From Promethearchaeota archaeon (GTDB lineage Archaea; Asgardarchaeota; Lokiarchaeia; Sigyniarchaeales; SOKP01): DNA of 64,000 nucleotides. Made by a program: the position numbers and the translations under genes. The stretch lies in assembly GCA_048940645.1 (NCBI GenBank), contig JBHLOI010000011.1, forward strand, positions 1 through 64,000, given 5' to 3'. Positions 2,021 to 63,923 of this stretch are shown in pieces. How positions within the stretch are numbered: the stretch's first letter is position 1; every line of letters starts with the position of its first letter. The notes below the pieces were generated by a model. It made no database searches and was not told the origin of the DNA. It was given only the letters and a program-made list of their open reading frames with translations.

Positions 2021-3058
2021 TTGAAAAAGGGAAATAAATATGGGACTCATAGAGTAACTGATCCAATTGGCGCTTTACCACAATCGGCAAATAAATTATT
2101 AAATGATATGGAAATATACGATAATGAAATCCTAATCGATGTTGATTATCTAAATATAGATTCTGCTAGTTTTACACAGTTAAAACAAGTCTCTAAGGGC
2201 GACATTGAGCAAATTAAAGAGTTGATAATTGCAATCGTGGATGAAAAAGGAAAAATGCAAAATCCAGTTACTGGTTCAGGAGGGATGCTAATCGGCAAAA
2301 TTGAAGCAATTGGAGATGCTTTGAGAGATGAAGTTGATTTGAAAGTCGGAGACAAAATTGCGACCTTAGTATCTCTTTCTCTAACACCTCTCAGGATAGA
2401 TGAAATCACTAAAATCTATCCAGAGATTGACCGTGTTGAAATTAAAGGTAAAGCAATATTATTTGAAAGTGGAATTTATGCTAAACTTCCTATAGATATG
2501 GAAGATACGTTAGCATTAGCAGTCCTTGATGTTGCAGGTGCTCCAGCTCAAGTAAAGAACCTTGTAAAAGAGGGTGATACTGTATTAATCCTTGGTGCTA
2601 CCGGAAAATCAGGTTTAATGTGTTCCTGTATGGCAAAAAAGATGGTTGGAAAAACAGGAAAAGTAATTGGTCAAGCTAGGAATGAAAAAAGAGCTAAATT
2701 CCTTGAAATTACAGAATTTTGTCATGAAATAATTATAGCTGATGTTTTAAAGCCAGTAAATGTACTAGAAGAAACACTAAAAGTTAATAATGGAAAAGAG
2801 GTCGACATTTCAATAAATTGTTTGAGTATTCCAAATACCGAAATGTCGAGTATATTACCTGTGAGAGATGGAGGAACTGTTTATTTCTTTTCTATGGCTA
2901 CTAGCTTTACAAAAGCAGCATTAGGTGCTGAAGGAGTAGGTAAAGATGTGACAATGATTATTGGAAATGGGTATACAGTAAATCATGCTAAAATTGCTCT
3001 AGATCTTTTAAATGAATCTGATATACTTAAAAAGATATTTCAAGAGAAATATAGCTAA
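2021..3058 (+). CDS. kdd: L-erythro-3,5-diaminohexanoate dehydrogenase
   Basis: KYGTHRV, LNIDSASF, NPVTGSGGML, LDVAGAPAQ, FTKAALGAEG motifs. Confidence 0.93.
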   Translation: MKKGNKYGTHRVTDPIGALPQSANKLLNDMEIYDNEILIDVDYLNIDSASFTQLKQVSKGDIEQIKELIIAIVDEKGKMQNPVTGSGGMLIGKIEAIGDALRDEVDLKVGDKIATLVSLSLTPLRIDEITKIYPEIDRVEIKGKAILFESGIYAKLPIDMEDTLALAVLDVAGAPAQVKNLVKEGDTVLILGATGKSGLMCSCMAKKMVGKTGKVIGQARNEKRAKFLEITEFCHEIIIADVLKPVNVLEETLKVNNGKEVDISINCLSIPNTEMSSILPVRDGGTVYFFSMATSFTKAALGAEGVGKDVTMIIGNGYTVNHAKIALDLLNESDILKKIFQEKYS

Positions 3059-3080
3059 TTTTAATCAAATTCTAATTTAA

Positions 3081-3159
3081 GTTTCGAAAAATATTTGAAT
3101 AAAAGTAGGTTTAATTAATTGTCAAGCTGAAATATAAAAATATTAAGAAAAATTATGAA
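3081..3159 (+). repeat. Copy 1 of a 79-bp direct repeat (duplicate of kamA promoter/5' region and start codon)
   Basis: Ungapped match to 4998-5076 with 8 mismatches by manual count. Confidence 0.9.
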
Positions 3160-3182
3160 TTTAATTCTAATCTAATTCTATA

Positions 3183-4889
3183 TTAACTTTCAATTACCCA
3201 ATTTTCAGTATTATTATAGAATGTGTTAGCTAAATAATCACACTCAGAATTAATCATAAGAATTCCTATAGTATTATTATAGAAGATATTATTAACAAAA
3301 ATTGTTGAATTTGAATTTGATAAATAAGCTCCCTCCGAATTAAAGTTAAATTGGCAATTTGACACATTAAAATCATTAGAATTTATTATGCGAATTCCAA
3401 TGACAAGGTTATAACTGAAATTGGAGAAAGTACAATTACAGAATTTGCAATCAATGAAAGTAATGGCATAATTTGTATTTTCGATATTTTGGTTCTTGAT
3501 TATTATATTGGAGCAGTTAATAAAAAATAATTGCCCATAAATTTCTGGATTATCAATAACTAGTCCACTTTGATCAATTATAAATCCCAAATCCTTACCA
3601 TTTACTAGATTATTTTCACAGATTAATGAATAGCCAAGATAATCCGAAAAATAAAGTCCATTACCTCTCAGAATATTGTTTTTTATGCTACAATTATAGG
3701 AAGATCCTATATGTATACAATCTTCAGACCAATAGTTATCTTCCTTATAAGTAAAAGTATTGTTTAAAATTCTGGTAGAATTTGAATAAGAAATATACAG
3801 ATTTAAATTATTATTTATTAATTTATTATTTTCCAAAGTACTTGTTGGAGAATGACCTAAACTTATACCCCGTTGATAATTAAGTACTTTATTATTGCTA
3901 ATATTAAAATTACCATCAGTGGAGTAGATATCAATTCCATAACCACGGGTATTATATAATGTCCCTACACACGTATTATTAATTATTTTTATATACCCTA
4001 CATTAATATGGTCAATTCTAATAGCACCACCTGCGAATAAGAAATTATTTTGAATTATAAAATAGACTGAGACATAAGAAATATCAATCGCAAGATTCCG
4101 TCCATTACAAATAGTACGATTTTCAATTCTATAAGGGTCTTCCAATGTTCCAGAACCGGGAATATTATACCTTTCAAAATCATCAGTAGAATCAATATAA
4201 AGTGGAGAGGATGAAGAAATAGGGTATCTAGGGTATTGTTCAATAAATAAGTAGAGTAGTGGATATCCATAAGCTAAATAAAAAAAAGATAGAAATAGAA
4301 GAATAAAATATATAGCAGAACTCCAAAGAGGAAATTTTTTCCTTCTCTTTTTTATGATAAAATATGAAACTATATAAAATGAAGTTACAACAGCAAATAA
4401 AATGATAGGAATGATAATGAACAGTACTGGATTATATGTTACATCCCAATCAATATCTATTTCTGTTGATTCTTGATCAGGATCATCATTAAGAAAAATA
4501 ATAAACCAAGTGTTTTCATACGGAATTGCAAAGCAGCCTTGATCATGACTCTTTTCGCCGTTAGATAACAAATGATACTTAATTTTTGATTTATTTAACA
4601 TAAATTTTTGATAATTAAGATTGTCCATGGCTAGTGCTTTAATTCCTACTTGTGCATTATGACTAGTGAAAGACCATTCAATTCCGTAAAGGTTAGAAGC
4701 AGTATACTTAATTTCCGTGAAATCTCGATAATTCAAAGTCTGCCCATAACCACCAGAAGCTTTAATTCCTTCTTTTTTCCTTTCTGAATTTAGGGAATCA
4801 AATGTTATATTTAAGGCAAGTATTGTAATATTAAGGGTTAAGATTATTAAAATTACGATATCTAATATAATCTTCTGCTTATATTTCAT
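3183..4889 (-). CDS. Membrane protein with C-terminal right-handed parallel beta-helix (NosD/CASH-like) domain
   Basis: N-terminal hydrophobic segment, two internal TM helices, GSGTLEDPYRIEN motif, Asn-rich I-x-N-N repeats. Confidence 0.8.
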   Translation of the reverse strand: MKYKQKIILDIVILIILTLNITILALNITFDSLNSERKKEGIKASGGYGQTLNYRDFTEIKYTASNLYGIEWSFTSHNAQVGIKALAMDNLNYQKFMLNKSKIKYHLLSNGEKSHDQGCFAIPYENTWFIIFLNDDPDQESTEIDIDWDVTYNPVLFIIIPIILFAVVTSFYIVSYFIIKKRRKKFPLWSSAIYFILLFLSFFYLAYGYPLLYLFIEQYPRYPISSSSPLYIDSTDDFERYNIPGSGTLEDPYRIENRTICNGRNLAIDISYVSVYFIIQNNFLFAGGAIRIDHINVGYIKIINNTCVGTLYNTRGYGIDIYSTDGNFNISNNKVLNYQRGISLGHSPTSTLENNKLINNNLNLYISYSNSTRILNNTFTYKEDNYWSEDCIHIGSSYNCSIKNNILRGNGLYFSDYLGYSLICENNLVNGKDLGFIIDQSGLVIDNPEIYGQLFFINCSNIIIKNQNIENTNYAITFIDCKFCNCTFSNFSYNLVIGIRIINSNDFNVSNCQFNFNSEGAYLSNSNSTIFVNNIFYNNTIGILMINSECDYLANTFYNNTENWVIES

Positions 4890-4997
4890 GCGAATTGGCT
4901 TTCCTGAAACTAACTAAGATAAATAGTTCTTTCAAAAATATAAATCTAATCTTAAAAATCAGCGTATTATTTAATAATTGTATTAATTGAGGAGAAT

Positions 4998-5076
4998 GTT
5001 TCGAAAAATATTTGAACAAAAATATGTTTCATTAATTGTTAAGCTGAAGTAAAAAAATATTATGAAAAATTATGAA
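4998..5076 (+). repeat. Copy 2 of the 79-bp direct repeat; probable kamA promoter (CGAAAAATATTTGAA) and start
   Basis: Matches 3081-3159; ends just after the kamA ATG at 5072. Confidence 0.9.
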
Positions 5077-6310
5077 AGTAAATAGACGTAAAGAATTATT
5101 TGGTCATATAAATGATGATAATTGGAATGACTGGCGTTGGCAAGTTAAAAATAGGATAACAACATTAGAAGAACTTAAAAAGTACATTACATTAACCAAG
5201 GAAGAAGATGATCCTAGAATCCTCCAAGAGTATAGGATGGCAATTACACCTTATTATCTATCATTAATCGATCCTAATGATCCTTATGATCCAATAAGAC
5301 AACAAGCAATTCCCACAATTCAGGAATTGGAACGATATAGCGGCGAACTTGAAGATCCACTCAGTGAGGATGTGGATTCTCCCATTGAGGGATTAACTCA
5401 TCGTTATCCCGATAGAGTACTATTTTTAGTTACAGAAAATTGTTCAATGTATTGTAGGCATTGTACAAGAAGAAGATTTGCGGGTCATCATGATATGGCT
5501 CCACCACAATCACAAATAGACGCTTGTATAGAGTATATTAAAAATACTCCTGCTGTTAGGGATGTACTTTTATCTGGGGGAGATGCTTTATTAAGATCTG
5601 ATAAAAATATAGAAGAGATTTTAAAGAAATTAAGAGAAATTCCTCATGTTGAAATAATACGTATAGGATCTAGAGCACCAGTTACAAATCCTTTCCGTAT
5701 TACTCCAGAGTTATGTGAAATGTTAAAAAAATATCATCCTATTTGGTTTAATACACATTTTAATCATCCTAACGAAATTACAGAAGATTCTACAAGAGCA
5801 TGTGAAATGCTAGCAGATGCGGGTATGCCTCTTGGAAATCAATCCGTTTTATTGAGAGGAGTAAATGATTGTATTCATGTTATGAAAAGATTAGTCCAAG
5901 AATTAGTAAAAATAAGAGTTAGACCATATTATATTTACCAATGTGATCTTTCTAGAGGATTAGGGCACTTTAGAACTACCGTCGCCCAAGGTATTGAAAT
6001 AATTGAAGGTCTAAGGGGACATACATCTGGATTATGTGTTCCTACGTTTGTAGTAGATGCTCCTGGAGGGGGTGGAAAAATTCCAGTAATGCCAGATTAT
6101 ACAATTTCTCAAGGCAATAAACGTGTTGTGTTAAGAAATTTTGAAGGTGTAATTACAACGTACGAAGAACCTGAAAATTACATCCCTAATTGTCATTGCG
6201 AAGACTGTGAAAAACAAATAGGAGTTAGTGCTTTACTAAGTGGTGAAAAAGTCACTATTGAACCTGTAGATTTAAAAAGAAAATTAAGAAGGAAAAAACT
6301 CTCTAAGTAA
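5072..6310 (+). CDS. kamA: Lysine 2,3-aminomutase (radical SAM/PLP)
   Basis: WNDWRWQ, LTHRYPDRVL, CSMYCRHCTRRR (CxxxCxxC), DAPGGGGKIP. Confidence 0.97.
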   Translation: MKVNRRKELFGHINDDNWNDWRWQVKNRITTLEELKKYITLTKEEDDPRILQEYRMAITPYYLSLIDPNDPYDPIRQQAIPTIQELERYSGELEDPLSEDVDSPIEGLTHRYPDRVLFLVTENCSMYCRHCTRRRFAGHHDMAPPQSQIDACIEYIKNTPAVRDVLLSGGDALLRSDKNIEEILKKLREIPHVEIIRIGSRAPVTNPFRITPELCEMLKKYHPIWFNTHFNHPNEITEDSTRACEMLADAGMPLGNQSVLLRGVNDCIHVMKRLVQELVKIRVRPYYIYQCDLSRGLGHFRTTVAQGIEIIEGLRGHTSGLCVPTFVVDAPGGGGKIPVMPDYTISQGNKRVVLRNFEGVITTYEEPENYIPNCHCEDCEKQIGVSALLSGEKVTIEPVDLKRKLRRKKLSK

Positions 6311-6408
6311 AAATTAGTTATATTAAATATACTTATATTACTTCTAATCTTTAATATTATTTGTATTATCCATTTTTGTCTAATATCATATTAAGATAGG
6401 ATCAGGAC

Positions 6409-8187
6409 TTGTCTAATACAGAGCCTCAAGAATTAATTATTGCTAAAAAACTCATTGAACAGAATAAATATGGTGAGGCTTTCCAAGTTCTTTCAGATTT
6501 CGATCAAAATGGGGAAAATAATCTTAGTGATAAGATTTCATGCCTACTTCTTCAATGTCAAATTCTTTTTTGGCAAGGGGATTATAAAGATGTAATATTA
6601 CTTGCTAAAAAGATTTATAAAAAAAGTCTAGAACTGGGAAAAACTCTCCAATCTGTTGATGCCTTAATTTTTATTATTATGGCGTTAGTTGGAGAAGGTA
6701 AGCTTAATCTAGTTTTTGGAGCCATTAAAAAAGCTGATGATTTATTGAAAACACTTAAGAAAAAGTCACCGGATTATATACGAAGAGAAGCTACAATATC
6801 ATGGTATTTAGGTGCTTCATATGCTGAAAATAAGGGTATGGTTGATGAGGGCTTAAAGTATGTAGAGCAAAGTTTGAAATTAAGAGAAGAAATAGGCCAT
6901 AAACAAGAAATTTCTGAATCGATTTTGGAAATTGGTTATCTTCTAGGAGTTCATAAAGGTGAATTAGATAAAGCTATAGGTTTATTGAAGCAAGCGCTTG
7001 TACTTGCTGAGGAAAGTAATGATAAATATACGATTGTTAAAGTTTTTTATGTTTTCCATTTAATTTATTACTTAAAGGGTGAATTAGATGATAGCCTCTC
7101 ATATATTAAAAGATGTTTAGTATTATATAAAGAGTTTAATAATAAAGCATTCATTGCTTGGAGCTTTTATCATCTAGCGGAAATTTATAGAATGAAAGGT
7201 GATTTAAAAAGTGCTTTAAAATACATAAAAAAAAGTATAGCTTTATCTGAAGAATTAGAAAATAAACGCTTATTTGTAATAACTATTAGTACAATAATTA
7301 AATTGAATCTTGATAACAGTGATGCAGAAGGAGCATGGAAATACTTACAACGCTTAGAGCAATTTAAGGATCATGTAGGATTGTATGCTAATTTATTATA
7401 CCGTTTATCAAAAGTAAAATTGTTAAAAACAAGTCTTTCGGTCAAAAATCGAGTTAAGGCTGAAAAAATATTAAAAATGATTATTAAAGAAAGTACAAGC
7501 CATGCTATGATTAGAATAGAAGCTCAATTAGAACTTTGTAATGTTTTACTAAATGAGTTACGATTCACTAATAATATTAAAGTGCTAGATAAGATAAACT
7601 ACAATGTAGATCAATTGATAAAGTTTTCTGAAAGTTCAAATTCTTTTAATATTTTAGCTGAAACTTATCTATTACAAGCTAAGATATCGTTAATAAGTAT
7701 AAATATAGGAGAAGCTCAGCGACATTTTATTCAAGCCTTGCAAATAGCCGAAAGACATGGACTCAATAGATTATCTAAAAAAATTTCGACTGAATATAAA
7801 AAATTGTTAAATCAGTTAACATTATGGGAACAATTAAAAGAGCTAAATGTATCGATAAATAAACGTATGGATTTAGCCAAAATTAGTGAACAGATGAATT
7901 TAATGCTTCGCAATCGCCAGATAATTTATATCCAAACAAGTGAAGATAAAATTACAATTCAAAAGGAACGGAAAATTTGTTTAGTCTGTAAAGGAGAGAT
8001 CGTAGGGTTTACATATGTATGCGAATGTGATACAATCTATTGTGAAAATTGCGCTAAGGCATTAACTAATTTCGAAAATGTTTGTTGGGTGTGTAATGCT
8101 CCAATAGATAAATCGAGACCTACGAAACCTTATATGAAAGATGAAATGGAAAAAGAAATGAAAATCTCGGAAAAGAGTCAAAAATAA
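6409..8187 (+). CDS. TPR-repeat protein with C-terminal Cys-rich (RING-like) domain, paralogue 1
   Basis: Helical TPR repeats; CLVCKG..YVCECDTIYCENC..CWVC tail. Confidence 0.85.
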   Translation: MSNTEPQELIIAKKLIEQNKYGEAFQVLSDFDQNGENNLSDKISCLLLQCQILFWQGDYKDVILLAKKIYKKSLELGKTLQSVDALIFIIMALVGEGKLNLVFGAIKKADDLLKTLKKKSPDYIRREATISWYLGASYAENKGMVDEGLKYVEQSLKLREEIGHKQEISESILEIGYLLGVHKGELDKAIGLLKQALVLAEESNDKYTIVKVFYVFHLIYYLKGELDDSLSYIKRCLVLYKEFNNKAFIAWSFYHLAEIYRMKGDLKSALKYIKKSIALSEELENKRLFVITISTIIKLNLDNSDAEGAWKYLQRLEQFKDHVGLYANLLYRLSKVKLLKTSLSVKNRVKAEKILKMIIKESTSHAMIRIEAQLELCNVLLNELRFTNNIKVLDKINYNVDQLIKFSESSNSFNILAETYLLQAKISLISINIGEAQRHFIQALQIAERHGLNRLSKKISTEYKKLLNQLTLWEQLKELNVSINKRMDLAKISEQMNLMLRNRQIIYIQTSEDKITIQKERKICLVCKGEIVGFTYVCECDTIYCENCAKALTNFENVCWVCNAPIDKSRPTKPYMKDEMEKEMKISEKSQK

Positions 8188-8382
8188 ATAAACAAATAAA
8201 AATCGTTTTAAATTTAAAGTAAAAATTAAGTTTAATTTAAAGCATAATTTAAAAAGAAAGTTAAGAAGGAAAAAACTTTCTAAGTAAAAACTAATCGTAA
8301 ATATACTTAAATTGTCTCTAATCTTTAATATTATTTATATAAACCAGTTTTATCTAAAATCATATTAAGATAAGATTATAAC

Positions 8383-10167
8383 TTGTCTAATTCAGAACCC
8401 AAGGAATTAACTTACGCAAGACAGTTTATAAATAAGGGAAATTTTGATAAAGCAATTCAAATTATTTCAGATTTCGAAAAAAAAGGGGGGATTACTGCTC
8501 ATGCTATTACATCATGTCATCTCCTCAAGTGTGACCTTTTAATTCAGCGGGGGTGTTATGAAAATGCATTAAATCTAGCTGAACAAACATATAAAGAAAG
8601 TATGGAACTTGGAAAAAATCTTCTTTCCGTTGATGCTTTAATTTACAGCGCTAAATCTCTAGTTTGGCTTAATAAGCATGATAAAGCTTTAAATATAACT
8701 AACCAAGCCGAAAAATTATTAAAGAGTTTTACTTTAGATTCATCAACAGAGTATAAGCAACGAGAAGCTTATATTTTTTTCATTAAAAGTTTATTTAATT
8801 TCTTTGATCTTGATGAGAGACTAAACTATGCAGAGCAGAGCTTGTTATTAAGAGAAGAACTCGGCATTAAAAATGAGATTGCTGAATCTATGAGGACAAT
8901 CGCCCATCTACATGCCGCATATAAAGGTGAATTTGATTATGCTTTAGATTATCTAAAGCGAGGATTGTCATTTGCCGAGGAAAGTAAGAATAAGTATTGT
9001 ATTGCAATGGTATTAAGAACTCTGATGTTAACTTATGGCATGAGAGGCGATTTTGATCAAGCTATCATATACGGATTGCAAGGCCTAGCAATATTCGAGG
9101 AAATTAATAACAAACCAAGAATCTCATTAATGCTTAACACCATTGGTACTAATTATAGAATGAAAGGAGAACTTGATCGAGCTTTAGAATATTTACAGCG
9201 AAGTATTGCTATATGTGAGGAACTTGGACTCCCTTCGGATTTAGCTCTTGTTTTTGGTACATTAATTGAAATAACAGTAGATATGGATAATCTTGAGTTA
9301 GCCCAAAAGTACCTTGAAAGAATAAAACAGATTAGAGATCAAGAGGAAAATGAATGGATTAATCTATTATATCGCTTTGGTATGGTTGATATATTAAAAA
9401 CAAGTAAAAGGGCTAAGAATCGAGTAAAAGCAGAAAAATTGTTGAAAGAGATAATTGAGGAAAGTTTTCAGACCTATTTTACAATTTTAGCAATATTATC
9501 ACTTTCTGACCTTCTACTTGTTGAATTACGCATTACTAGCGATACAAAGGTTCTAGTTGAGTTAAAGACATATATTAATCGCCTCCTAGAATATGCTGAA
9601 ACTTCAAACTCATATTGGCTTTTAGCTGAAACTTATTTATTGCAAGCAAAAATCTCATTAATAAATATAAATATTGGAGAAGCTCGACGATATCTTATTC
9701 AAGCTCAGCAAATAGCCGAAAGAAATGGGCTCAGTGGCTTATATAAAAAAATTGAGAACGAACATGAGAAATTATTAAGTCAGTTAACATTATGGGAACA
9801 ATTAAAGGAGTTAAATGCAACTATAACTGAACGTATGGAATTAGCCAATATTAGTGAACATATGAACCTAATGCTTCGAAATCGTCGGATGATAACTATT
9901 CAAACTAGTAAAGATAAAGTTGCAATTCAAGAGGAGCGGATAATCTGCCTAGTCTGTAAAGGAGATATAGTAGGTTTTTCATATGTATGTGAATGTGAAG
10001 CGATGTATTGCGAAAATTGCGCTAAAACATTAGCCAATTTAGAAAATGTTTGTTGGGTGTGTAATGTTCCAATAGATAAATCGAGACCAACGAAACCCTA
10101 TATGAAAGATGAAAGAAAAAAAGAAATGAAAATCTCGGAAAAAAACCAAAAAGAAATAAACGAATAA
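8383..10167 (+). CDS. TPR-repeat protein with C-terminal Cys-rich (RING-like) domain, paralogue 2
   Basis: Same architecture as 6409-8187 with a near-identical C-terminus. Confidence 0.85.
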   Translation: MSNSEPKELTYARQFINKGNFDKAIQIISDFEKKGGITAHAITSCHLLKCDLLIQRGCYENALNLAEQTYKESMELGKNLLSVDALIYSAKSLVWLNKHDKALNITNQAEKLLKSFTLDSSTEYKQREAYIFFIKSLFNFFDLDERLNYAEQSLLLREELGIKNEIAESMRTIAHLHAAYKGEFDYALDYLKRGLSFAEESKNKYCIAMVLRTLMLTYGMRGDFDQAIIYGLQGLAIFEEINNKPRISLMLNTIGTNYRMKGELDRALEYLQRSIAICEELGLPSDLALVFGTLIEITVDMDNLELAQKYLERIKQIRDQEENEWINLLYRFGMVDILKTSKRAKNRVKAEKLLKEIIEESFQTYFTILAILSLSDLLLVELRITSDTKVLVELKTYINRLLEYAETSNSYWLLAETYLLQAKISLININIGEARRYLIQAQQIAERNGLSGLYKKIENEHEKLLSQLTLWEQLKELNATITERMELANISEHMNLMLRNRRMITIQTSKDKVAIQEERIICLVCKGDIVGFSYVCECEAMYCENCAKTLANLENVCWVCNVPIDKSRPTKPYMKDERKKEMKISEKNQKEINE

Positions 10168-10281
10168 AAATCGTTTTAAATTTGAAGTAAAAATTAAGTT
10201 TAATTTAAAACATAATTTAAGATTCATATAAATAAGATTTATTTCTCTTATTATCAGATACTCATTAAGTCTAGTGAGAAA

Positions 10282-11313
10282 ATGGATTTTATAACTAATT
10301 TTCTTAACAATATTACTGATTACTCGATTATATCAATAATAGGTCTTGCAAAAAATGTTAGTAAAACTACTACATTAAATTATATTATCAAGAATCTAAA
10401 AGATTATAAACTTGGTTTAACTTCTATAGGAAGAGATGGAGAAAAGTATGATGTGATAACCCAATTACCGAAGCCAAGGATTTTTATAGAGGAAGGAACA
10501 TATATTGCAACTGCTCGGCAGAGTTTAGAAAATAGTGAGATAAAAGTAAATCTTGTTAAAAAAACAGGAATAGAAACACCAATGGGAGAGGTACTAATTT
10601 CAAAAGCAATTACTCCAGGTCTAATCGAACTTGCGGGTCCATCAATAAATTATCAATTATCTATAATATGTAAAGAATTGAAAGATCTCGGATGTAAAGT
10701 TATTTTAGTGGATGGTGCATTTGACAGAAGAGCATATGCAACGCCTTTAATATCTGATGCAACTATATTATCTACTGGTGCCTCGGTTTCGGAAGATATG
10801 AACTATGTAGTCGATTTAACTGTCCATACAGTGGAATTATTAACTCTTGAAAGTGAAACTGACAAGCTAATTTTAAGATTAGCAAAAAAAATTTTAGAGA
10901 ATAATAAAGTTGGAATTATCAATAAAGATAATTCTATTAAAGGATTAGGATTATTGACAGCGCTAGATGCATCAAAAGAAATTATAGAAAATCTAGATGA
11001 TAAATCGCAATTTGTTGTAATTAAAGGAGCTTTAACAGATAAATTATTAGAGGATTTAATGCAGTTAACTAATAAATATAAGGGTTTGATATTTTTAGTC
11101 GAAGATGGAACTAAATTGTTTTTAAGTAAAAATACGTTTAAAAAGTTTCAAAAAAAAGGAGGATTTCTAAAAGTCATAAATCCGATAAAGATTATAGCCT
11201 TAACCATTAATCCAACATCTCCGGAAGGATATAAGTTTAACAAAATTGAATTTTTAAAGTTATTAAGGCAGAATATTAAGATCCCTATTTATGATCTTGG
11301 ACCATGTGGATGA
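10282..11313 (+). CDS. kamB: Lysine 5,6-aminomutase reactivase subunit KamB-like
   Basis: SIIGLAKNVSKTTTLN, TSIGRDGE, LVDGAFDR motifs; directly upstream of kamDE. Confidence 0.75.
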   Translation: MDFITNFLNNITDYSIISIIGLAKNVSKTTTLNYIIKNLKDYKLGLTSIGRDGEKYDVITQLPKPRIFIEEGTYIATARQSLENSEIKVNLVKKTGIETPMGEVLISKAITPGLIELAGPSINYQLSIICKELKDLGCKVILVDGAFDRRAYATPLISDATILSTGASVSEDMNYVVDLTVHTVELLTLESETDKLILRLAKKILENNKVGIINKDNSIKGLGLLTALDASKEIIENLDDKSQFVVIKGALTDKLLEDLMQLTNKYKGLIFLVEDGTKLFLSKNTFKKFQKKGGFLKVINPIKIIALTINPTSPEGYKFNKIEFLKLLRQNIKIPIYDLGPCG

Positions 11314-28237: not shown

Positions 28238-28251
28238 TTTTTCTTTAAATA
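28238..28251 (+). promoter_or_regulatory. Regulon promoter TTTTTC-TTTAAATA
   Basis: Upstream of 28297; first copy of the recurrent motif in the window. Confidence 0.8.
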
Positions 28252-35072: not shown

Positions 35073-35086
35073 TATATAAAGAAAAA
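35073..35086 (-). promoter_or_regulatory. Regulon promoter TTTTTC-TTTATATA
   Basis: TATA starts 41 nt before ATG 35039. Confidence 0.8.
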
Positions 35087-36824: not shown

Positions 36825-36838
36825 TATTTAAAGAAAAA
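36825..36838 (-). promoter_or_regulatory. Regulon promoter TTTTTC-TTTAAATA
   Basis: TATA starts 31 nt before ATG 36801. Confidence 0.85.
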
Positions 36839-38368: not shown

Positions 38369-38393
38369 TTTTTCTTTATATTTAAAAGAAAAA
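38369..38393. promoter_or_regulatory. Overlapping back-to-back regulon promoters (+ TTTTTCTTTATATT; - TTTTTCTTTTAAATA)
   Basis: TTTTTCTTTATATTTAAAAGAAAAA; the minus copy precedes ATG 38334. Confidence 0.7.
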
Positions 38394-38424
38394 TTAAGTT
38401 CTCTCTTCTTTTTCATTAAGATGT

Positions 38425-38438
38425 TTTTTCTTTATATA
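38425..38438 (+). promoter_or_regulatory. Regulon promoter TTTTTC-TTTATATA
   Basis: TATA starts 43 nt before ATG 38474. Confidence 0.8.
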
Positions 38439-42852: not shown

Positions 42853-42866
42853 TTTTTCTTTAAATA
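42853..42866 (+). promoter_or_regulatory. Regulon promoter TTTTTC-TTTAAATA
   Basis: TATA starts 51 nt before ATG 42910. Confidence 0.75.
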
Positions 42867-43428: not shown

Positions 43429-43442
43429 TTTTTCTTTAAATA
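43429..43442 (+). promoter_or_regulatory. Regulon promoter TTTTTC-TTTAAATA
   Basis: TATA starts 57 nt before ATG 43492. Confidence 0.78.
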
Positions 43443-48131: not shown

Positions 48132-50471
48132 TTATGAGTTTTTAATTTTTTTAAACTGTAAATGCTTTTTTGTGTTTATTGAATCCATTTTTTTGGAGGA
48201 GAAATAAACCAAACAAATTGGACATGCGATTAAAATAACGCCTATTATTGTTGCATGAGTAAATTCACCATTGAAATCTTTAAAAAAGTTTGTATCCGCA
48301 TAATCAGGATTCGAAAAATTCTTTTCCATAAAGCATACCCAGTATAAGGCTTCATGGCAAATTTTTTTTCTCTCAATAGATAAATAAAATTCATAAAAAG
48401 TAGAATCGAATATTCCTGCTATGAGTTCTTGAATAGAACTTATCTCAAAATAGATATTTAAATCTAATAATTCTGAAATTAGATAACTGTAATATACATT
48501 CTTTATGTTTGTATAATCAAGATGCTTTATGATAAAATTCTTAATTTTAGAATCGTCTAAATCATAGAGATTAAGTAATCTTAACATATAAATGCCGAAA
48601 TATGTATTTTCAAGGGTAAAATCAAATTCATTATCTTTGCATGGACCAAAATAAAGTTCACTAGCAGTTTCTTCTACCTGATTGAGAATATACGTACTCA
48701 AAGCACTCACATCAAATCCAATATATAAAAAGTTACCTAAATTTAAATAATCTGCAAGGAGCTCCAAGGCACGGAGTGCATAATAAGTTGTTTCGAATTC
48801 GATACTAAAATTTTGGTATTCAACTGTAGAATGAATAAAGGAATAAGTTGGTAAAAAACCTCCATTATTTATATAATTATCATTTAAAAATTGACTTTGA
48901 ATAATTCTATTTACTATATCTAGTAAATCATGATTTAACTCGAACACTTCAAGTCTTGAAATCTTATTGAGTGTATCTAGTGCCAAAAAAGTACTTTTAT
49001 GAGATTGCATTCTTCCTATTTCATATATCCCATATGAATAATATTCAACTGGAAAGGAACGGAATATTATGGAATCAAAATTCATATTTGTACAGGATAT
49101 AAACATATCACCATCTTCTGCATAATCATAATAACAGGCACTTTCTATTAATTGGTATAGTTGAGAAATGGGAAATTCATTTATTTTATCGTCATATGCA
49201 TTAATCAATGAGTAAAGGAGTTGCAAGGAGGTATAGTCTTCTGAAAGAAGAGCGAATCCATCTAGGTAGAAATACTTTTCTAAAGAAGCAACAATCATAT
49301 CTGTTTCAATGCTATTTAATCGTGAAAGTTCACCAACTTGTTCTAAAGAGCGAAGAATCTGAAAAGTATCAATTAACTCATGATATTGAATGTTTGTGGA
49401 TTGCTCCCAGATGCCCCATGAATTTCTATTATTGAAGATGAATTGTGAAACATTTACTTTGGAATAATTAGAATAACCAGTTAAATAAGCCAATTCTAAG
49501 GCTAGAGCGCTTCCAATTACATCTAATTCGTTATGCTGTTTACAGAATGCTGAAAAATAGAAGTGATAATCGGATGGATTATATAGACGATTAAGATAGA
49601 GATAAAAGTTATTAATATTAATAGAATCAATTTGATTGAATAATTCTAAACTTTTAAGGCAATAATATGCTGAAAGTAAATTAGGATCATTAAATTTAAG
49701 TGAGGAGATAATAAAATCGTCATCATTGAAGAAACCGCCAAAAAAATCGGGATGACTTCCAGTTGCTTGCAGTCCAACTATATAATCAATGATATTGTTC
49801 TTTACTTGAGTATATAGATCCCAATTGTCTAATATATCGATTACTTTTATTGCGTAGAATGTATTATCCATAGTAGTTAATTTCAAATAGGGGGGAAGGG
49901 AAATATCAAATTGTTTTCCAATAAAGCCGTGTCCCACAGGATTATAGCAATCCCAAATAAAGTCTATTATGCTTTGACTATCAATGAGATCCAATTTTCC
50001 AAGAATTTTCAAAGACAATACTGCATAACAATTAATCTCAAGCAAAGAGGATAAGGGATAGATAATTTCCTTGTGGGGATCACTTTCAAGCCACCGTTTT
50101 GCGTAGTTATCAATAAAAAGATTCTCATCTGATTGATAAAAAGCCATGATAAATTCAGTAATCTGAGTGGTATTAATCTCATCCAATCTGTCCAATTTAT
50201 CTAAAATTTCGAGTGTATAATAAGTTGCTTGAATGGAGGGCTCATAAATCTGAGAAAAATACCCTTTTTCACCAAATTGTCCCAATTTTTTATTAAAGAT
50301 GTTGTTTATCAACCCATGATATCCTAATGAAGAAGACGAGAGCCCTTCCTTCTCTGTATATGCTGCTATAGGAGGGTTATTGGAAAATCCAATAAAGAAC
50401 ATAATATTCACTGTTAAAGAAACCATTAAAAGTATAGATAGTAAGTTTTTACCTTTCATTTTTATTTGCAT
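48132..50471 (-). CDS. Exported, membrane-anchored prenyltransferase/squalene-cyclase-repeat (alpha/alpha barrel) protein
   Basis: Repeated TYYTL/TFYAI/AYYCL/TYYAL helices with GGF turns; N-terminal signal, C-terminal TM. Confidence 0.72.
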   Translation of the reverse strand: MQIKMKGKNLLSILLMVSLTVNIMFFIGFSNNPPIAAYTEKEGLSSSSLGYHGLINNIFNKKLGQFGEKGYFSQIYEPSIQATYYTLEILDKLDRLDEINTTQITEFIMAFYQSDENLFIDNYAKRWLESDPHKEIIYPLSSLLEINCYAVLSLKILGKLDLIDSQSIIDFIWDCYNPVGHGFIGKQFDISLPPYLKLTTMDNTFYAIKVIDILDNWDLYTQVKNNIIDYIVGLQATGSHPDFFGGFFNDDDFIISSLKFNDPNLLSAYYCLKSLELFNQIDSININNFYLYLNRLYNPSDYHFYFSAFCKQHNELDVIGSALALELAYLTGYSNYSKVNVSQFIFNNRNSWGIWEQSTNIQYHELIDTFQILRSLEQVGELSRLNSIETDMIVASLEKYFYLDGFALLSEDYTSLQLLYSLINAYDDKINEFPISQLYQLIESACYYDYAEDGDMFISCTNMNFDSIIFRSFPVEYYSYGIYEIGRMQSHKSTFLALDTLNKISRLEVFELNHDLLDIVNRIIQSQFLNDNYINNGGFLPTYSFIHSTVEYQNFSIEFETTYYALRALELLADYLNLGNFLYIGFDVSALSTYILNQVEETASELYFGPCKDNEFDFTLENTYFGIYMLRLLNLYDLDDSKIKNFIIKHLDYTNIKNVYYSYLISELLDLNIYFEISSIQELIAGIFDSTFYEFYLSIERKKICHEALYWVCFMEKNFSNPDYADTNFFKDFNGEFTHATIIGVILIACPICLVYFSSKKMDSINTKKHLQFKKIKNS

Positions 50472-50516: not shown

Positions 50517-50530
50517 TATTTAAAGAAAAA
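50517..50530 (-). promoter_or_regulatory. Regulon promoter TTTTTC-TTTAAATA
   Basis: TATA starts 53 nt before ATG 50471. Confidence 0.78.
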
Positions 50531-50564: not shown

Positions 50565-51830
50565 CTAGATTATAAGATCTCCATTAAATTGCGGAGGCCC
50601 TTTCACTTTCCAAATGCCTAAATCAAACAACTGATTATTAATAATAACAGGTTTCTCATTCTCTTTTGATGTTGAGAAATTTTCTTCAAATAGATTTTTA
50701 ACTGCGTTTTTATTTACCTCACAAGAGATAAACATTGTATTATTTTCCAAGTCTCTTAACGCATAAAAATAATATTCATTATTATCATGCGGATTGAATA
50801 TTTGCATCGCATTGCCTAATTCAATCTCGATTATTTCAGGAGCTATTTTTTCATTTTCTTTGAATTGATCTAATAATACACCAAGGTGTTCCATCACTTT
50901 TTTTAACAAATCAGCAGATCGTACCAAGCTTTTAAATCCAGGAATACGGAGGCGATTAAATATCTTTCTCTCTACTTGTTTATGAATAGTACTCATTCGA
51001 ATATTTAACCTATTACAAATATCACTTACTGTAATTGGATTTTCTGGCAAACAGAGAACAGAAATAGAGGTAGCCACTCCTACTACTACATCATCTTTAG
51101 TATTTTTAATTGAATCCCATAATCTATATAGGATTTTTTTTGATTGATAATAAAAATACATTCCCAATCCAAAATGTTCGGTTAATTCCATAATTCTCTG
51201 AAGAATATACTCTTTTCGATTTCTCTCTTTATATTCTGGCATGAATTCATTAATCTGGAGCTTAAATGCTTGAAAATCTTTTTTAGAAATTTTTGCTACA
51301 TCTAATAAAGCTCGCTCATCCACCGGTTTACATTCATATTTGTATGTGAAGTATATTACTATTGGAACCAATTTTTCAGGGCTTCTATATTTTGTACCAT
51401 GACCTAACTTTGTATGAATTTGTTTAAAGTTCTTTAAGATTTTACTCTTATCTGTAGCTGGGAGAGAAAGAGCTTCAAATATTCTGCCAATTTCAATAAT
51501 AGCTTTTATTTCTACATTTTCATCATTACTTTTAATTGAATCAATCCTATTTAACCGTTCTAATCGATATGATTGAGGATTTCGTAATCTTTCTCGTTTG
51601 AATCCAATTTTTGTTTTCCCAGGTGTGGCATATTGTAAAATATCTTCATTATAGGGCCGATGATATTGCATAATCTGGATGGGAAGCATTACTCCACAAT
51701 CTTTACAAACAAATCCAAACTCATTTTGGATTATATCTGTTGAATTACATATATCACATCTTAACGAAGTACGCATCTCAACTTTATTTAATTGAGATTT
51801 ATTATGGGTTGCCAACTTAATCACAATCAC
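50565..51830 (-). CDS. Divergent transcription initiation factor B (TFB/TFIIB) paralogue
   Basis: CDIC..FVCKDCGV Zn ribbon; RLERL linker; cyclin repeats YRSPEKLVPIVIY..VDERALLDVAKISKKDF and ITVSDICNRLNIRMSTIHKQV; C-terminal extension. Confidence 0.8.
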   Translation of the reverse strand: MIVIKLATHNKSQLNKVEMRTSLRCDICNSTDIIQNEFGFVCKDCGVMLPIQIMQYHRPYNEDILQYATPGKTKIGFKRERLRNPQSYRLERLNRIDSIKSNDENVEIKAIIEIGRIFEALSLPATDKSKILKNFKQIHTKLGHGTKYRSPEKLVPIVIYFTYKYECKPVDERALLDVAKISKKDFQAFKLQINEFMPEYKERNRKEYILQRIMELTEHFGLGMYFYYQSKKILYRLWDSIKNTKDDVVVGVATSISVLCLPENPITVSDICNRLNIRMSTIHKQVERKIFNRLRIPGFKSLVRSADLLKKVMEHLGVLLDQFKENEKIAPEIIEIELGNAMQIFNPHDNNEYYFYALRDLENNTMFISCEVNKNAVKNLFEENFSTSKENEKPVIINNQLFDLGIWKVKGPPQFNGDLII

Positions 51831-52240
51831 AAATTTTCTTAATTACTAAGTTAAAGAAGATGGGGAGTGGCCTTTTTAAATCTTATCCTCTTGATCAGAA
51901 ATGACTGATAGAATCTTTCTAATCACAAATTAGATTTTTCCACTTATGTAAAAATGGGTAAAATTTCCATTTTATCGATCACCTCCTCATGATCTGAATT
52001 GAGGAAAAGTTGATATTATCATTAAAACGTTAAAATAAAGCTAAGTTTAAATCGCAAAATTGTATTAAACCCAAGATTTAGCTAATTTGGATTAACTAGA
52101 AGATTTTAGATTTTTTACTTTTAGTAAAAGTTATTACTTTTCTTTGTGTTTAGTTTTTAGAAAGTGAAAAAAAATCCACTCCCAGTTAGCAGGAAACACA
52201 ATTAAAACAATTTTTTTGACAAAAAAAATGCACCTAGAAG

Positions 52241-52271
52241 TTTAGCAGTAGGTATACCTGCTACTGTTAAA
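52241..52271. promoter_or_regulatory. Inverted repeat/palindrome in the TFB-peptidase intergenic region
   Basis: TTTAGCAGTAG-gtatacctg-CTACTGTTAAA; contains the perfect palindrome AGGTATACCT (52250-52259). Confidence 0.5.
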
Positions 52272-52414
52272 AAAAAATTACTGGGATCAAGAAAATTAAT
52301 TGGAGAAAAACTTTCTGGAATGTAAGTTGCAAATGGAAAATCTTTTAAAGAATTTTTTAAAAACAACCCGGAAGGAATAAACTTTTAACTTTCTTCTTCT
52401 TTTTTTTTTAAAAT

Positions 52415-52428
52415 TTTTCCTTTATATA
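52415..52428 (+). promoter_or_regulatory. Regulon promoter TTTTCC-TTTATATA
   Basis: TATA starts 29 nt before ATG 52450. Confidence 0.82.
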
Positions 52429-52449
52429 ATTACACTTTATAATAGGATC

Positions 52450-53229
52450 ATGATATTCATTGATATGCTCATTTGGTTTTGTATTATTTTGACTATCTCA
52501 CTTGTTAGTCAATTGATATATCGTTATTCTAAGGGACCTATTAGAGCATTTCTGAATGTGGTTGGCTTCATTGGAGTCTTCATTCACGAATTAAGTCATG
52601 CTTTGATGTGTATAATTTTTCGAGTGCCTCTTAGGGGCTTTTCAGTGAAATTTCGCTCACATTACACCAATGAAGTTGCCCCCCATGGAAGAGTGAAAAT
52701 AGGAGAAGTGGAGCGTATATCATTTTTACAAAAGGTAATGGTATCAGTTGGTCCACTGATCATCTCTACATGGATCTTTTTATTCTGCCTTGATATAATA
52801 ACAATACAGGAAGCTGAACTTATGACCAAGATTGTCCTAGGGCTTATTATGGCGTCTCTATTAATAGGAGCAAGCCCTTCAGGGCATGATATTTACTACA
52901 TGTTTTACTCATATGGCATAGATCCACTGTATTCCACCTACCAATTGTTTCTAACAGCATTAGCTATAATTATTGTTTATTTTGGAATTGATTTTTCATC
53001 AATTGTCCTTCCCATGGAATTGTTTTACTACATTTTAGCTTTCTTTACGGTTATCGCATTCTATTTTACACTTAAATATTTTCTAAAATTTTTCTATTAT
53101 CTATACCGCCGGATATTCCACGCTTCACAGTTTACCTCTCGACAACTAACTCGTAAAAGGCATAAGCCTTATAAACCAAAAGAAGAATATTATGAGGAAA
53201 ATTATATTAAACGAGGGTATAATGAATGA
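52450..53229 (+). CDS. M50-like intramembrane zinc metallopeptidase
   Basis: GVFIHELSHAL (HExxH), SVGPL, PSGHD; multiple TMs. Confidence 0.8.
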   Translation: MIFIDMLIWFCIILTISLVSQLIYRYSKGPIRAFLNVVGFIGVFIHELSHALMCIIFRVPLRGFSVKFRSHYTNEVAPHGRVKIGEVERISFLQKVMVSVGPLIISTWIFLFCLDIITIQEAELMTKIVLGLIMASLLIGASPSGHDIYYMFYSYGIDPLYSTYQLFLTALAIIIVYFGIDFSSIVLPMELFYYILAFFTVIAFYFTLKYFLKFFYYLYRRIFHASQFTSRQLTRKRHKPYKPKEEYYEENYIKRGYNE

Positions 53230-53564
53230 AGATCTTATGTTATTTTGTCATAATTATAGCCTTCATGATGTATTTTCAGAAGGAACCGATCTATACTGTC
53301 GTAATTATAGGAATAGGGATTGGACTTTACATCTATTTTAAATCACGAAAAGGAAAGTCAGGTGTATTCGGAAAATTTCTAGGTGGTAACTCAGAAGATT
53401 CAGATGACCGTATGAATGATTTAATTTTATTTTTCATGCTCCAGCAGATGGCTACTAATTCTTCCCAGCAACATGAATCCACAAAACAACGAGAGAAAGA
53501 CAAGAAACAAGATCAAATTGATAAGATAAAGCACGAAGTTCTTGATCTTTTAGAGAGTGATTAA
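53226..53564 (+). CDS. Small membrane protein with acidic/charged C-terminal region
   Basis: Two N-terminal hydrophobic segments; overlaps the upstream stop. Confidence 0.65.
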   Translation: MKILCYFVIIIAFMMYFQKEPIYTVVIIGIGIGLYIYFKSRKGKSGVFGKFLGGNSEDSDDRMNDLILFFMLQQMATNSSQQHESTKQREKDKKQDQIDKIKHEVLDLLESD

Positions 53565-54272
53565 ATGCAAGACTTTTTATTAGAAATTAAGACCTTACTT
53601 CAATCTAGAATGCTGATATCCATTTATGGAAAATCAGGTACAGGAAAAACTTTTTTAGGCCTATATTTATTAGGTAATTTATTGACTGAAAAGGAACCAT
53701 ATCATTATCAATGTATTTGGATACAAGCCTGTGAATTTTTTCCATCAAAACGACTCTCTCAGTTATTTCAAAAAGACCTTAACAAATTACAATTTCTAAG
53801 AAATAATATTTTTATTACACCTTTGAAAAAACCATTTCTTTCTTATCAAGAACAAGCAGTTTTAATTTCCCAAATTCAACATAAAACTTTACCTCCTGAA
53901 CTGAAGGTAATAATAATTGATAATATTTCACATCATTTACGATATGAAATTTCAAAATATGAAAGTATTTCAGAAAAAGTGTTTATTCTAAATGATTTTT
54001 ATGAAAACCAACTATTTCCTTTAATTATGTATTGCCAACAAGAGAATATGATTCTCATATTAATTCATGAAGTGTCTTATAACCCAAACTTAAAAAAGAT
54101 CGTGCCATTTTTGCATAAATTATATAACCGGATTGATAGTATTAATGTTTACCTGGAAAAAAACCTATTATCTGAAAATAAGATATTACATCTTATTTAT
54201 TCTGATTATAATAATCAATTTAATTATCGTATTGAAAATCACGGCTTCCAATGGATTGAATCTCTCTTATAA
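53565..54272 (+). CDS. RadB-like RecA-family ATPase
   Basis: IYGKSGTGKT Walker A, FPSKRL, VIIIDNIS Walker B; no N-terminal HhH. Confidence 0.8.
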   Translation: MQDFLLEIKTLLQSRMLISIYGKSGTGKTFLGLYLLGNLLTEKEPYHYQCIWIQACEFFPSKRLSQLFQKDLNKLQFLRNNIFITPLKKPFLSYQEQAVLISQIQHKTLPPELKVIIIDNISHHLRYEISKYESISEKVFILNDFYENQLFPLIMYCQQENMILILIHEVSYNPNLKKIVPFLHKLYNRIDSINVYLEKNLLSENKILHLIYSDYNNQFNYRIENHGFQWIESLL

Positions 54273-54900: not shown

Positions 54901-54914
54901 TTTTTCTTTAAAAA
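54901..54914 (+). promoter_or_regulatory. Regulon promoter TTTTTC-TTTAAAAA
   Basis: TATA starts 29 nt before ATG 54936. Confidence 0.8.
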
Positions 54915-55347: not shown

Positions 55348-55361
55348 TTTTTCTTTATAAA
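55348..55361 (+). promoter_or_regulatory. Regulon promoter TTTTTC-TTTATAAA
   Basis: TATA starts 56 nt before ATG 55410. Confidence 0.8.
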
Positions 55362-58769: not shown

Positions 58770-58783
58770 TATATAAAGAAAAA
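58770..58783 (-). promoter_or_regulatory. Regulon promoter TTTTTC-TTTATATA
   Basis: TATA starts 54 nt before ATG 58723. Confidence 0.8.
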
Positions 58784-58857
58784 ATTAGAAATCATGGAGA
58801 GACCCTCCCTTTATATAAAATACTATTTGTATTACTCTACGATTTTTCTAACCTCAT

Positions 58858-58871
58858 TTTTTCTTTAAATA
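58858..58871 (+). promoter_or_regulatory. Regulon promoter TTTTTC-TTTAAATA
   Basis: TATA starts 29 nt before ATG 58893. Confidence 0.85.
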
Positions 58872-59558: not shown

Positions 59559-59573
59559 TATTTAAAAGAAAAA
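59559..59573 (-). promoter_or_regulatory. Regulon promoter TTTTTC-TTTTAAATA
   Basis: T-run after the C starts 63 nt before ATG 59504. Confidence 0.72.
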
Positions 59574-59918: not shown

Positions 59919-59932
59919 TTTTTCTTTAAATA
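59919..59932 (+). promoter_or_regulatory. Regulon promoter TTTTTC-TTTAAATA
   Basis: TATA starts 29 nt before ATG 59954. Confidence 0.82.
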
Positions 59933-63909: not shown

Positions 63910-63923
63910 TTTTTCTTTAAAAA
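63910..63923 (+). promoter_or_regulatory. Regulon promoter TTTTTC-TTTAAAAA
   Basis: TATA starts 61 nt before ATG 63977. Confidence 0.68.

Follow-up and report, generated by a model that had tools for sequence, protein, structure and literature searches.

The window analysed here is a stretch of 64,000 nucleotides (positions 1 to 64,000 of contig JBHLOI010000011.1, assembly GCA_048940645.1) from a Lokiarchaeial metagenome-assembled genome of 3.83 Mb with 29.8% GC and a completeness of 89.6%, in which it belongs to contig C104 of 126. At 50565-51830 on the reverse strand it carries a gene for a divergent paralogue of the archaeal transcription factor TFB, and around this gene extends a block of about 40 kb, referred to below as the island, in which nearly all promoters have a TTTTTC element. 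The first-pass annotation, made from the DNA letters alone, had described a TFB that has a Zn ribbon, a B-reader of reduced length, a pair of cyclin repeats, a C-terminal extension and a rewritten helix for the B recognition element (BRE), and had proposed it as a candidate reader of TTTTTC. The description of the protein was borne out at each of these points, and the proposed role, weighed below, finds partial support.

The open reading frame is real and comprises 421 codons when counted from the GTG at 51830; residue numbers throughout refer to this frame. In an alignment of the upstream DNA of 16 relatives, the start codon of the relatives falls on codon 6, where they have ATG GCA ACT and the present genome has TTG GCA ACC. 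The record in the ESM Atlas likewise begins at residue 6. Because the relatives start at this position and a Shine-Dalgarno-like GTGAT lies 4 nt upstream of it, the true start is probably TTG 51815, which gives a coding sequence of 416 amino acids at 50565-51815 (reverse strand) in a frame that stays open up to GTG 51830.

The domains of the protein, all encoded on the reverse strand, follow the order of a TFB. The Zn ribbon (C25-x2-C28 ... C42-x2-C45, 51696-51758) has its four cysteines, C25, C28, C42 and C45, invariant in 60 homologues and aligns with canonical ribbons; Pfam PF08271 (Zn_Ribbon_TF) gives a weak match at E 1.3e-3, under the cut-off, and the TFIIB model of NCBIfam is matched over the ribbon part only. 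Residues 50-100 (51531-51683) contain the B-reader and a B-linker-like segment, TKIG/TQIG..ER. In the B-reader, the canonical GPEWRAFS..E...R.G.P has given way to Y(H)RPYN.D..Q (YHRPYN..Q), which is shorter by about 10 residues and is without PEWRAF, and the predicted local distance difference test score (pLDDT) is low over residues 52-70. The conserved TQIG..ER of the linker-like segment aligns with canonical GLSTxI and was modelled by AlphaFold2 with moderate confidence. Cyclin repeat 1 (residues ~102-202, 51225-51527), with a conserved GTKYR loop where canonical TFB has the RGR loop, and cyclin repeat 2 (residues ~205-295, 50946-51218) are both backed by the AlphaFold2 model, by Foldseek and by HHalign, and the pair is backed further by the profile search of the PDB. 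The C-terminal helix-turn-helix (residues 266-294, 50949-51035) holds the recognition helix MSTIHKQVERK, for which the family consensus is MSTI(Q/H)xQVK. The C-terminal extension (residues 300-421, 50568-50933; 105-120 amino acids in the family) starts with the conserved helix SLVKSxxLLK and continues with a linker, charged and variable, and a small beta-beta-alpha-beta domain, with K(G/D)PP near the C-terminus. This domain reached a pLDDT of 72 when modelled alone, and no fold match to it was found by Foldseek in the PDB at E<=0.001, while the best Z in the wide VIA-align search was 3.5.

The protein is almost certainly a member of the TFB/TFIIB superfamily, even though the simplest searches did not find this relation. 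The cyclin model PF00382 gave no match on the protein, though nine canonical TFB genes were found in the same genome, and a single-sequence phmmer search against the PDB found no TFB. Two signatures of the TFB family, namely the B-reader (PEWRAF...R.G) and the canonical BRE helix, are absent from it. Its descent from TFB is shown by three independent approaches. The AlphaFold2 model, which was built with 60 homologues, has a pLDDT >90 over residues 100-320, and its top Foldseek matches were chains of TFIIB, TFB, Brf1 and Brf2. The cyclin core is present in this model and superimposes on the TFB core of P. woesei as complexed to TBP, the TATA-binding protein, and to BRE/TATA DNA (1d3u_B) with TMt 0.78 and a root-mean-square deviation of 3.3 A over 204 columns. 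The family profile found human TFIIB (E 2e-7), Brf2 (1e-5), P. woesei TFB (2e-5) and Brf1 (4e-4) in the PDB. HHalign matched the family to the genome's nine canonical TFBs with a probability of 99.8% and E 1.4e-26; the alignment, 287 columns long, begins at the ribbon and ends at the last helix. In the tree, the family forms one group that is split from the nine canonical paralogues with 100/100 support and stands on a very long branch.

The complex prediction of the TBP of this genome (L013:1441-2106:-, residues 28-210) with the core residues 100-322 gave a score of 0.01, which is evidence neither way. The genome has one normal two-repeat TBP, on C22, and a single TBP repeat (PF00352, E 1e-20) was also observed in a 420-amino-acid open frame at G000:C83:2329-2550 (L015).

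The alignment of the final helix-turn-helix with its canonical counterpart pairs every residue, and it is in the recognition helix that the two groups part. Helix ITVSDICNRLNIRMSTIHKQV, residues 266-286, was placed by HHalign against canonical RTQKEISLAAGVTEATIRNRY. The nine canonical paralogues all read GVTE(V/A)T(I/L)R(N/S/M)R, whereas the divergent family reads (N/G)I(R/K)MSTI(Q/H)xQVK. We take V283 and R286 of human TFIIB to be BRE contacts; at the positions matching them, the canonical V is replaced by S280 and the canonical R by H/Q283, and the next R is replaced by Q285. The substitution of the recognition helix, as first annotated, thus concerns the contact positions themselves, and the new helix is kept across the family, down to about 30% identity. 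Because of this conservation, the rewritten helix is taken to be under selection and is not decaying. A divergent "MSTINYQ" helix subgroup also exists (P0197, P0201, P0205).

The gene itself is preceded by another kind of promoter. As the annotation had noted, the gene has no TTTTTC of its own, and a conserved purine-rich BRE/TATA promoter is found instead at 51864-51890 (reverse strand), with the BRE-like GAGGATAAGA at 51881-51890, the TATA element TTTAAAAA at 51873-51880 and CACTCC at 51864-51869. This architecture is kept across genera and in members of about 30% identity (L045, L044). It fits a factor that would be made by the housekeeping machinery and would stand upstream of the island, as the earlier reading of the sequence had suggested. 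Between TATA and the start, at 51841-51872 (reverse strand), a conserved CACTCC(C/T) and a CTTTAGTAA-like word were observed, and the same arrangement occurs in L017-L027, L044 and L045; the two words may be the operator for a controller of the factor. The intergenic region between the gene and the divergent membrane-protein operon (51831-52449) is unusually long, 619 nt, and no Rfam match was found in it. A generic BRE consensus for this 30%-GC genome was sought in all TATA-like 8-mers and in the upstream regions of 16/17 tRNA genes, and none could be derived; the TTTTTC motif does not occur in the 16 tRNA upstream regions.

The TTTTTC promoters form a sharply bounded class. The pattern TTTTTC[CT]?TTTA[AT]A has 142 copies in the genome, 52 of which are intergenic, and 18 of the intergenic copies lie at 28.2-67.9 kb of C104. 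The strict form TTTTTC.?TTTAWATA has 31 copies genome-wide, and 15 of them fall in the 40 kb round the gene, against an expectation of about 0.3. The window's first 28 kb hold no copy of the motif. Of the 18 island copies, 17 are directed towards an open reading frame whose start is 6-73 nt downstream. The distance to the start codon is 21-23 nt for five copies, which is the spacing expected of leaderless transcripts, and mostly 33-49 nt for the others. With the leaderless spacing, the TATA-like octamer occupies about -29..-22 and TTTTTC falls in the slot of the BRE, at about -35..-30. The TTTTTC promoters have T at -3 and -6, where strong BREs of Sulfolobus have A at -3 and A/G at -6 (PMC5817253). 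TTTTTC-TTTAAATA is the form of the promoter at 52414 or 50517.

The two copies closest to the gene are kept in relatives. The promoter TTTTTCTTTAAATA at 50517-50530 (reverse strand) belongs to the toroid neighbour at 48132-50471 and is found in the same place in L011 and L017-L027, and TTTTTCCTTTATATA at 52414-52428 (forward strand), kept in L009, L011 and L012, precedes by 21 nt the ATG of the divergent operon at 52450-54272, which encodes an M50-like membrane protein, a 112-amino-acid protein and a RadB-like (RadB/KaiC-like) ATPase. Leftwards, copies occur before the 407-amino-acid gene (43429-43442, forward), at 42853-42866 (forward), and in a group of three (38369+, 38379- and 38425+; 38369-38438) between a radical-SAM gene and a Hel308-like helicase operon. 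Further copies precede the gene of a helix-hairpin-helix (HhH) membrane protein, with 23 nt to its ATG (36825-36838, reverse), and a VirB4-like membrane operon (35073-35086, reverse), and the copy at 28238-28251 (forward) marks the left edge of the island. Rightwards, they precede a 126-amino-acid gene, 21 nt before its ATG (54901-54914, forward), and the RadA paralogue with a Rad51 domain and an extra HhH (55348-55361, forward), and are followed by a divergent pair (58770- and 58858+; 58770-58871), a copy at 59559-59573 (reverse), one upstream of the region of a FEN1/XPG-like gene (59919-59932, forward) and one before an SSB/RPA-like OB-fold gene (63910-63923, forward). The genes behind TTTTTC promoters also include a DEAD helicase with a DUF1922 partner, the large prenyltransferase-like toroid, which is a surface protein, and many proteins of no recognised kind. 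Pilin-like proteins are also counted in the island. No other DNA-binding regulator was recognised by Pfam in it.

The island runs past the window to about 67.9 kb of the contig and is bordered by metabolic genes, an amino-acid kinase and a penicillin amidase on one side and OTCase on the other, with similar flanks in relatives. A recently integrated mobile element was considered and rejected; because the same flank genes recur beside the island in relatives and no integrase is present among the border genes scanned with Pfam, the block looks chromosomal and vertically inherited, and not like a fresh insertion. An Arf/Ras-like small GTPase gene was also noted within the island at C104:65965-66681 (L043:1965-2681). 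In the same genome, C12 has a second cluster at 2760-11045 (L041), with four strict copies in 9 kb before genes of no known family and an AAA-type ATPase gene. The toroid protein (48132-50471, reverse strand) is an alpha/alpha-toroid with an N-terminal signal or transmembrane segment, a C-terminal transmembrane segment and a short basic tail. No other neighbour of the TFB-like gene is as constant, and the toroid is retained even at about 30% identity of the factor. A pairing of the two proteins in the manner of an ECF sigma factor and its anti-sigma factor was considered and found unsupported, as the cytoplasmic tail is short and basic and its sequence is not conserved.

The family is large and narrowly distributed. 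One database yielded 374 homologues, and a second one 353 clusters at 50% identity. When 301 Asgard species genomes were surveyed, strong matches were found only in the GTDB family of the window itself, in about 50 of its 68 genomes, and outside that family only canonical TFBs answered, at about E 1e-16. Close matches with NCBI labels of Odin-, Thor-, Hod- and Heimdallarchaeota had suggested an Asgard-wide family, which this survey contradicts. Several genomes carry two to four full-length paralogues of the family. In six genomes (G171, G210, G225, G273, G186 and G129), two to six copies or fragments were observed in different neighbourhoods, some of the extra copies near VirB4-like or RadA-paralogue genes and others without island genes.

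The neighbourhood of the gene is retained together with the motif. Gene order is kept at 46-62% identity (L009, L011, L012), with the motif at the orthologous promoters. On the divergent side the conserved order is RadA paralogue, small gene, RadB-like gene, small gene and membrane protein, and on the other side it is TFB-like gene, toroid protein, 194-amino-acid protein, helicase and DUF1922 protein. The largest strict-motif cluster surrounds the gene in G204 (5 copies), G083 (3), G192 (8), G147 (4) and G207 (6+2). A motif copy lies within 1.5 kb of the gene in 11 of 12 loci, and most paralogous copies elsewhere also adjoin one. The 30%-identical member in L045 has the motif on the two large genes that flank it, its own gene being preceded by a purine BRE, and a 31%-identical member has kept the toroid neighbour. 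The toroid protein is also absent in 9 of the 11 genomes of the GTDB family that are without the gene, and the RadB-like gene is absent in the five that were checked; the apparent absence in G150 coincides with a contig end exactly at the position of the gene. The co-occurrence of factor and motif across genomes, a check that the first-pass annotation had proposed, came out in two ways: the two co-localise in every examined genome that has the gene, while G159 keeps the motif without it, which goes part of the way towards one of the refuting outcomes named in the annotation.

The mechanism that we propose is as follows. The divergent TFB retains the parts that it would need in a preinitiation complex, namely the polymerase-docking four-Cys ribbon, the B-linker-like segment, the two cyclins including the basic loop of repeat 1, and the helix-turn-helix, with the BRE-reading helix recast from VTEVT(I/L)R(N/S)R to MSTI(Q/H)xQVK. 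A housekeeping TFB would transcribe the gene from the conserved promoter with the purine-rich BRE and TATA, and a regulator bound to CACTCC / CTTTAGTAA would probably control this step. The protein would then recognise, together with TBP, the promoters that have TTTTTC in the BRE slot directly upstream of TTTAWATA. As a result, the conserved chromosomal block of about 40 kb of DNA-transaction genes would be switched on, including the RadA and RadB paralogues, two helicases, the FEN1-like and SSB/RPA-like proteins and the VirB4-like cluster, and also the HhH membrane protein, the pilin-like proteins and the large surface toroid protein. The short B-reader and the added C-terminal domain probably alter initiation or receive a signal. 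The binding to TBP, the direct readout of TTTTTC and the activation of the island are what we infer from the features described above. It is rather probable that the protein is an initiation factor dedicated to the island around it. Direct reading of TTTTTC through the rewritten helix, by a specialised alternative TFB, is the mechanism that we favour over any other, with a chance that we put a little short of even.

Several known systems can be compared with this proposal. With canonical TFB/TFIIB (1d3u, 1ais, 1vol; PF08271 + PF00382) the protein shares the order of ribbon, linker, two cyclins and C-terminal helix-turn-helix, and it differs in that PF00382 is blind to it, the B-reader is short, the BRE-contact residues are replaced, and an extra C-terminal domain of 105-120 amino acids with K(G/D)PP is present. 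TFB3 of the Sulfolobales is a TFB paralogue dedicated to DNA-exchange and repair genes, the ups pili and the Ced DNA importer (PMC6101594, PMC6101591). It is truncated to a ribbon and a coiled coil without the cyclin/helix-turn-helix core, and it acts through TFB1 (PMC6101594). The promoters of ups, ced and tfb3 in Sulfolobus have an A(N)TTTC element that is bound by Orc1-2 (PMC6061795) and is positioned at -44..-39, upstream of the BRE (PMC5817253). The likeness is that of a TFB paralogue tied to DNA-exchange and repair genes that share a short T-rich ...TTTC promoter element, and of a factor that co-evolves with its target system; the two are related through TFB ancestry. In contrast to TFB3, the divergent TFB is not truncated in this manner and has the full two-cyclin core and its own conserved helix-turn-helix, and its element is located in the BRE slot.

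Brf1 and Brf2, TFIIB-related factors of Pol III, resemble the protein in having a TFIIB-like core and, after it, an extension at the C-terminus; chains of Brf occur among the fold matches, and the JGI label of some members is "TFIIIB Brf1 subunit/TFIIB". In Brf1, C-terminal homology blocks bind TBP and Bdp1; the extension of the divergent TFB, modelled by itself, had no clear fold match. However, the PDB profile matches to TFIIB, Brf2 and Brf1 cover the ribbon and cyclin 1 only and show no specific affinity, and the divergent family is not a candidate ancestor of Brf because it is confined to one Lokiarchaeial family. In bacteria, ComX/SigX and SigH are alternative sigma factors that serve competence or SOS-like regulons. 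The analogy with them is limited to a dedicated initiation factor that differs in its promoter recognition, lies beside or within a DNA-uptake and recombination regulon and has its own housekeeping-type promoter; the protein families are unrelated and the polymerase systems differ. The logic of the proposed system would resemble that of such a sigma factor of a competence/SOS-type regulon, or of TFB3 driving ups/ced.

Certain observations weigh against direct readout of TTTTTC by the divergent TFB. The similar ANTTTC element is read by Orc1-2 rather than by a TFB, and this precedent cuts both ways. The distance from TTTTTC to TTTA differs by one base among the copies, an awkward feature if the reader is anchored by TBP, and the truncated B-reader might impair initiation. 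Since strong matches are limited to one GTDB family, the family is a Lokiarchaeial innovation and not Asgard-wide. G159, which is 99% complete, has canonical TFBs only and is without the RadB-like and toroid neighbours; it has six motif copies in an island-like arrangement on the 18-kb contig L035 (G159:C136:1-18120), with defence-like genes for TIR-LRR, TIR, a PLD nuclease, a helicase and a radical SAM protein. The motif copies of G159 also number about twice those of the reversed-pattern control. Either the gene is absent from the bin, or something else can use TTTTTC promoters there. G121 and G144 each have small pairs of the motif, and the genome-wide motif counts are equal in genomes with and without the gene. 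The evidence for the link is association and largely synteny, which cannot separate a protein that reads the motif from one that is part of the island.

A first alternative is that the divergent TFB is an island-specific co-factor of TFB type, recruited by protein contacts like TFB3, and that TTTTTC is read by another component, such as an Orc1/Cdc6 paralogue (the case in the DNA-damage response of the Sulfolobales), an unrecognised island protein, or the shape of T-tract DNA acting on TBP. The precedent is close, as Orc1-2 binds ANTTTC and TFB3 does not read DNA (PMC6061795, PMC6101594, PMC5817253); three Orc1/Cdc6 genes occur in the present genome, many proteins of the island belong to no known family, and the promoters of G159 carry the motif without the gene. 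Nevertheless, none of the three Orc1/Cdc6 genes lies in the island, TTTTTC abuts TATA in the BRE slot at -35..-30 whereas the Sulfolobus element lies upstream at -44..-39, and the divergent TFB, unlike TFB3, keeps a complete helix-turn-helix with a family-specific helix. We regard this explanation as unlikely, though it deserves serious consideration. The equal motif counts and the dependence on synteny, which is not independent evidence, would also be expected of a fast-evolving redundant TFB paralogue that has no promoter-class specificity and is linked to the motif by conserved gene order, and Lokiarchaeial genomes do have many TFB paralogues, nine canonical ones in this case. Such a paralogue is quite unlikely, because the rewritten helix is strongly conserved to 30% identity, the neighbourhood of gene and motif persists at that identity and round paralogues in other contexts, and genomes have either both the island and the gene or neither.

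The protein could also be a negative regulator or decoy, which occupies the TBP/promoter complexes of the island and initiates poorly, so that the island stays silent until the protein is taken away. The short B-reader without PEWRAF would suit this role, as would an extra C-terminal domain that is possibly a module for degradation or signalling and a viral member of the family that has no ribbon and is hardly able to recruit RNA polymerase. The invariant Zn ribbon and the conserved TQIG..ER, however, argue that polymerase contact is under selection, and the decoy is improbable. A TFIIB-fold protein that, like Orc6, was recruited to a DNA transaction other than transcription and works with the recombination or transfer machinery of the island would agree with the recombination and repair proteins in the neighbourhood and with the Orc6 chains among the weak fold and profile matches. 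These matches are far weaker than those to TFIIB, while the TFB domain order is fully kept with E 1.4e-26 to TFBs, and we consider this role very improbable.

The viral member was found by tblastn against phage and archaeal-virus records, which gave one match, the "TFIIB-like protein" of Lokiarchaeota virus WyrdV1 (MZ666939.1, L047, 13195-13917; 240 amino acids). The original description of WyrdV1 gives it only as a TFB homologue (bioRxiv 10.1101/2021.07.29.453957). Because the family profile matches it (84 bits, E 5e-28) and the canonical TFB profile does not, it is a member of the divergent family and not an ordinary TFB. It shares the motifs PY..Q, GFK.E, GT.(Y/H)R..LIP and C..LGI..ST with the family, but it has neither the Zn ribbon nor the C-terminal domain and stops inside the recognition helix, which reads STVFRR. 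No excess of TTTTTC-TATA was found in the WyrdV1 genome; this and the different helix are counted in favour of direct readout of TTTTTC by the host factor. A single-protein search of viral contigs gave no relative, and a plasmid collection gave no match. Competition of the ribbon-less copy with the host factor is speculation. The fullest version of the proposal, a sigma-like division of labour in which the TFB reads TTTTTC directly as a pyrimidine-rich BRE and switches on the conserved 40-kb competence/SOS-like regulon of DNA uptake and recombination, with the ribbon-less viral copy as a possible decoy, is more ambitious and, as a whole, doubtful.

A literature search found no paper that describes this divergent TFB family or the TTTTTC promoter class. 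Alternative TFBs are often likened to sigma factors, and to our knowledge there are few clear paralogues that have both a BRE specificity of their own and a defined regulon. In the present case, a rewritten and conserved helix sits beside a sharply bounded promoter class, and the BRE slot of this class is the opposite of the purine-rich canonical BRE. The diversification of the TFIIB family in eukaryotes (TFIIB, Brf, Rrn7) went together with specialisation for promoter classes, and the lineage considered here is near the origin of eukaryotes. If the proposed reading is true, it would define a regulon for DNA repair and DNA transfer in Asgard archaea and would give a function to a TFB-like gene that is encoded by a virus.

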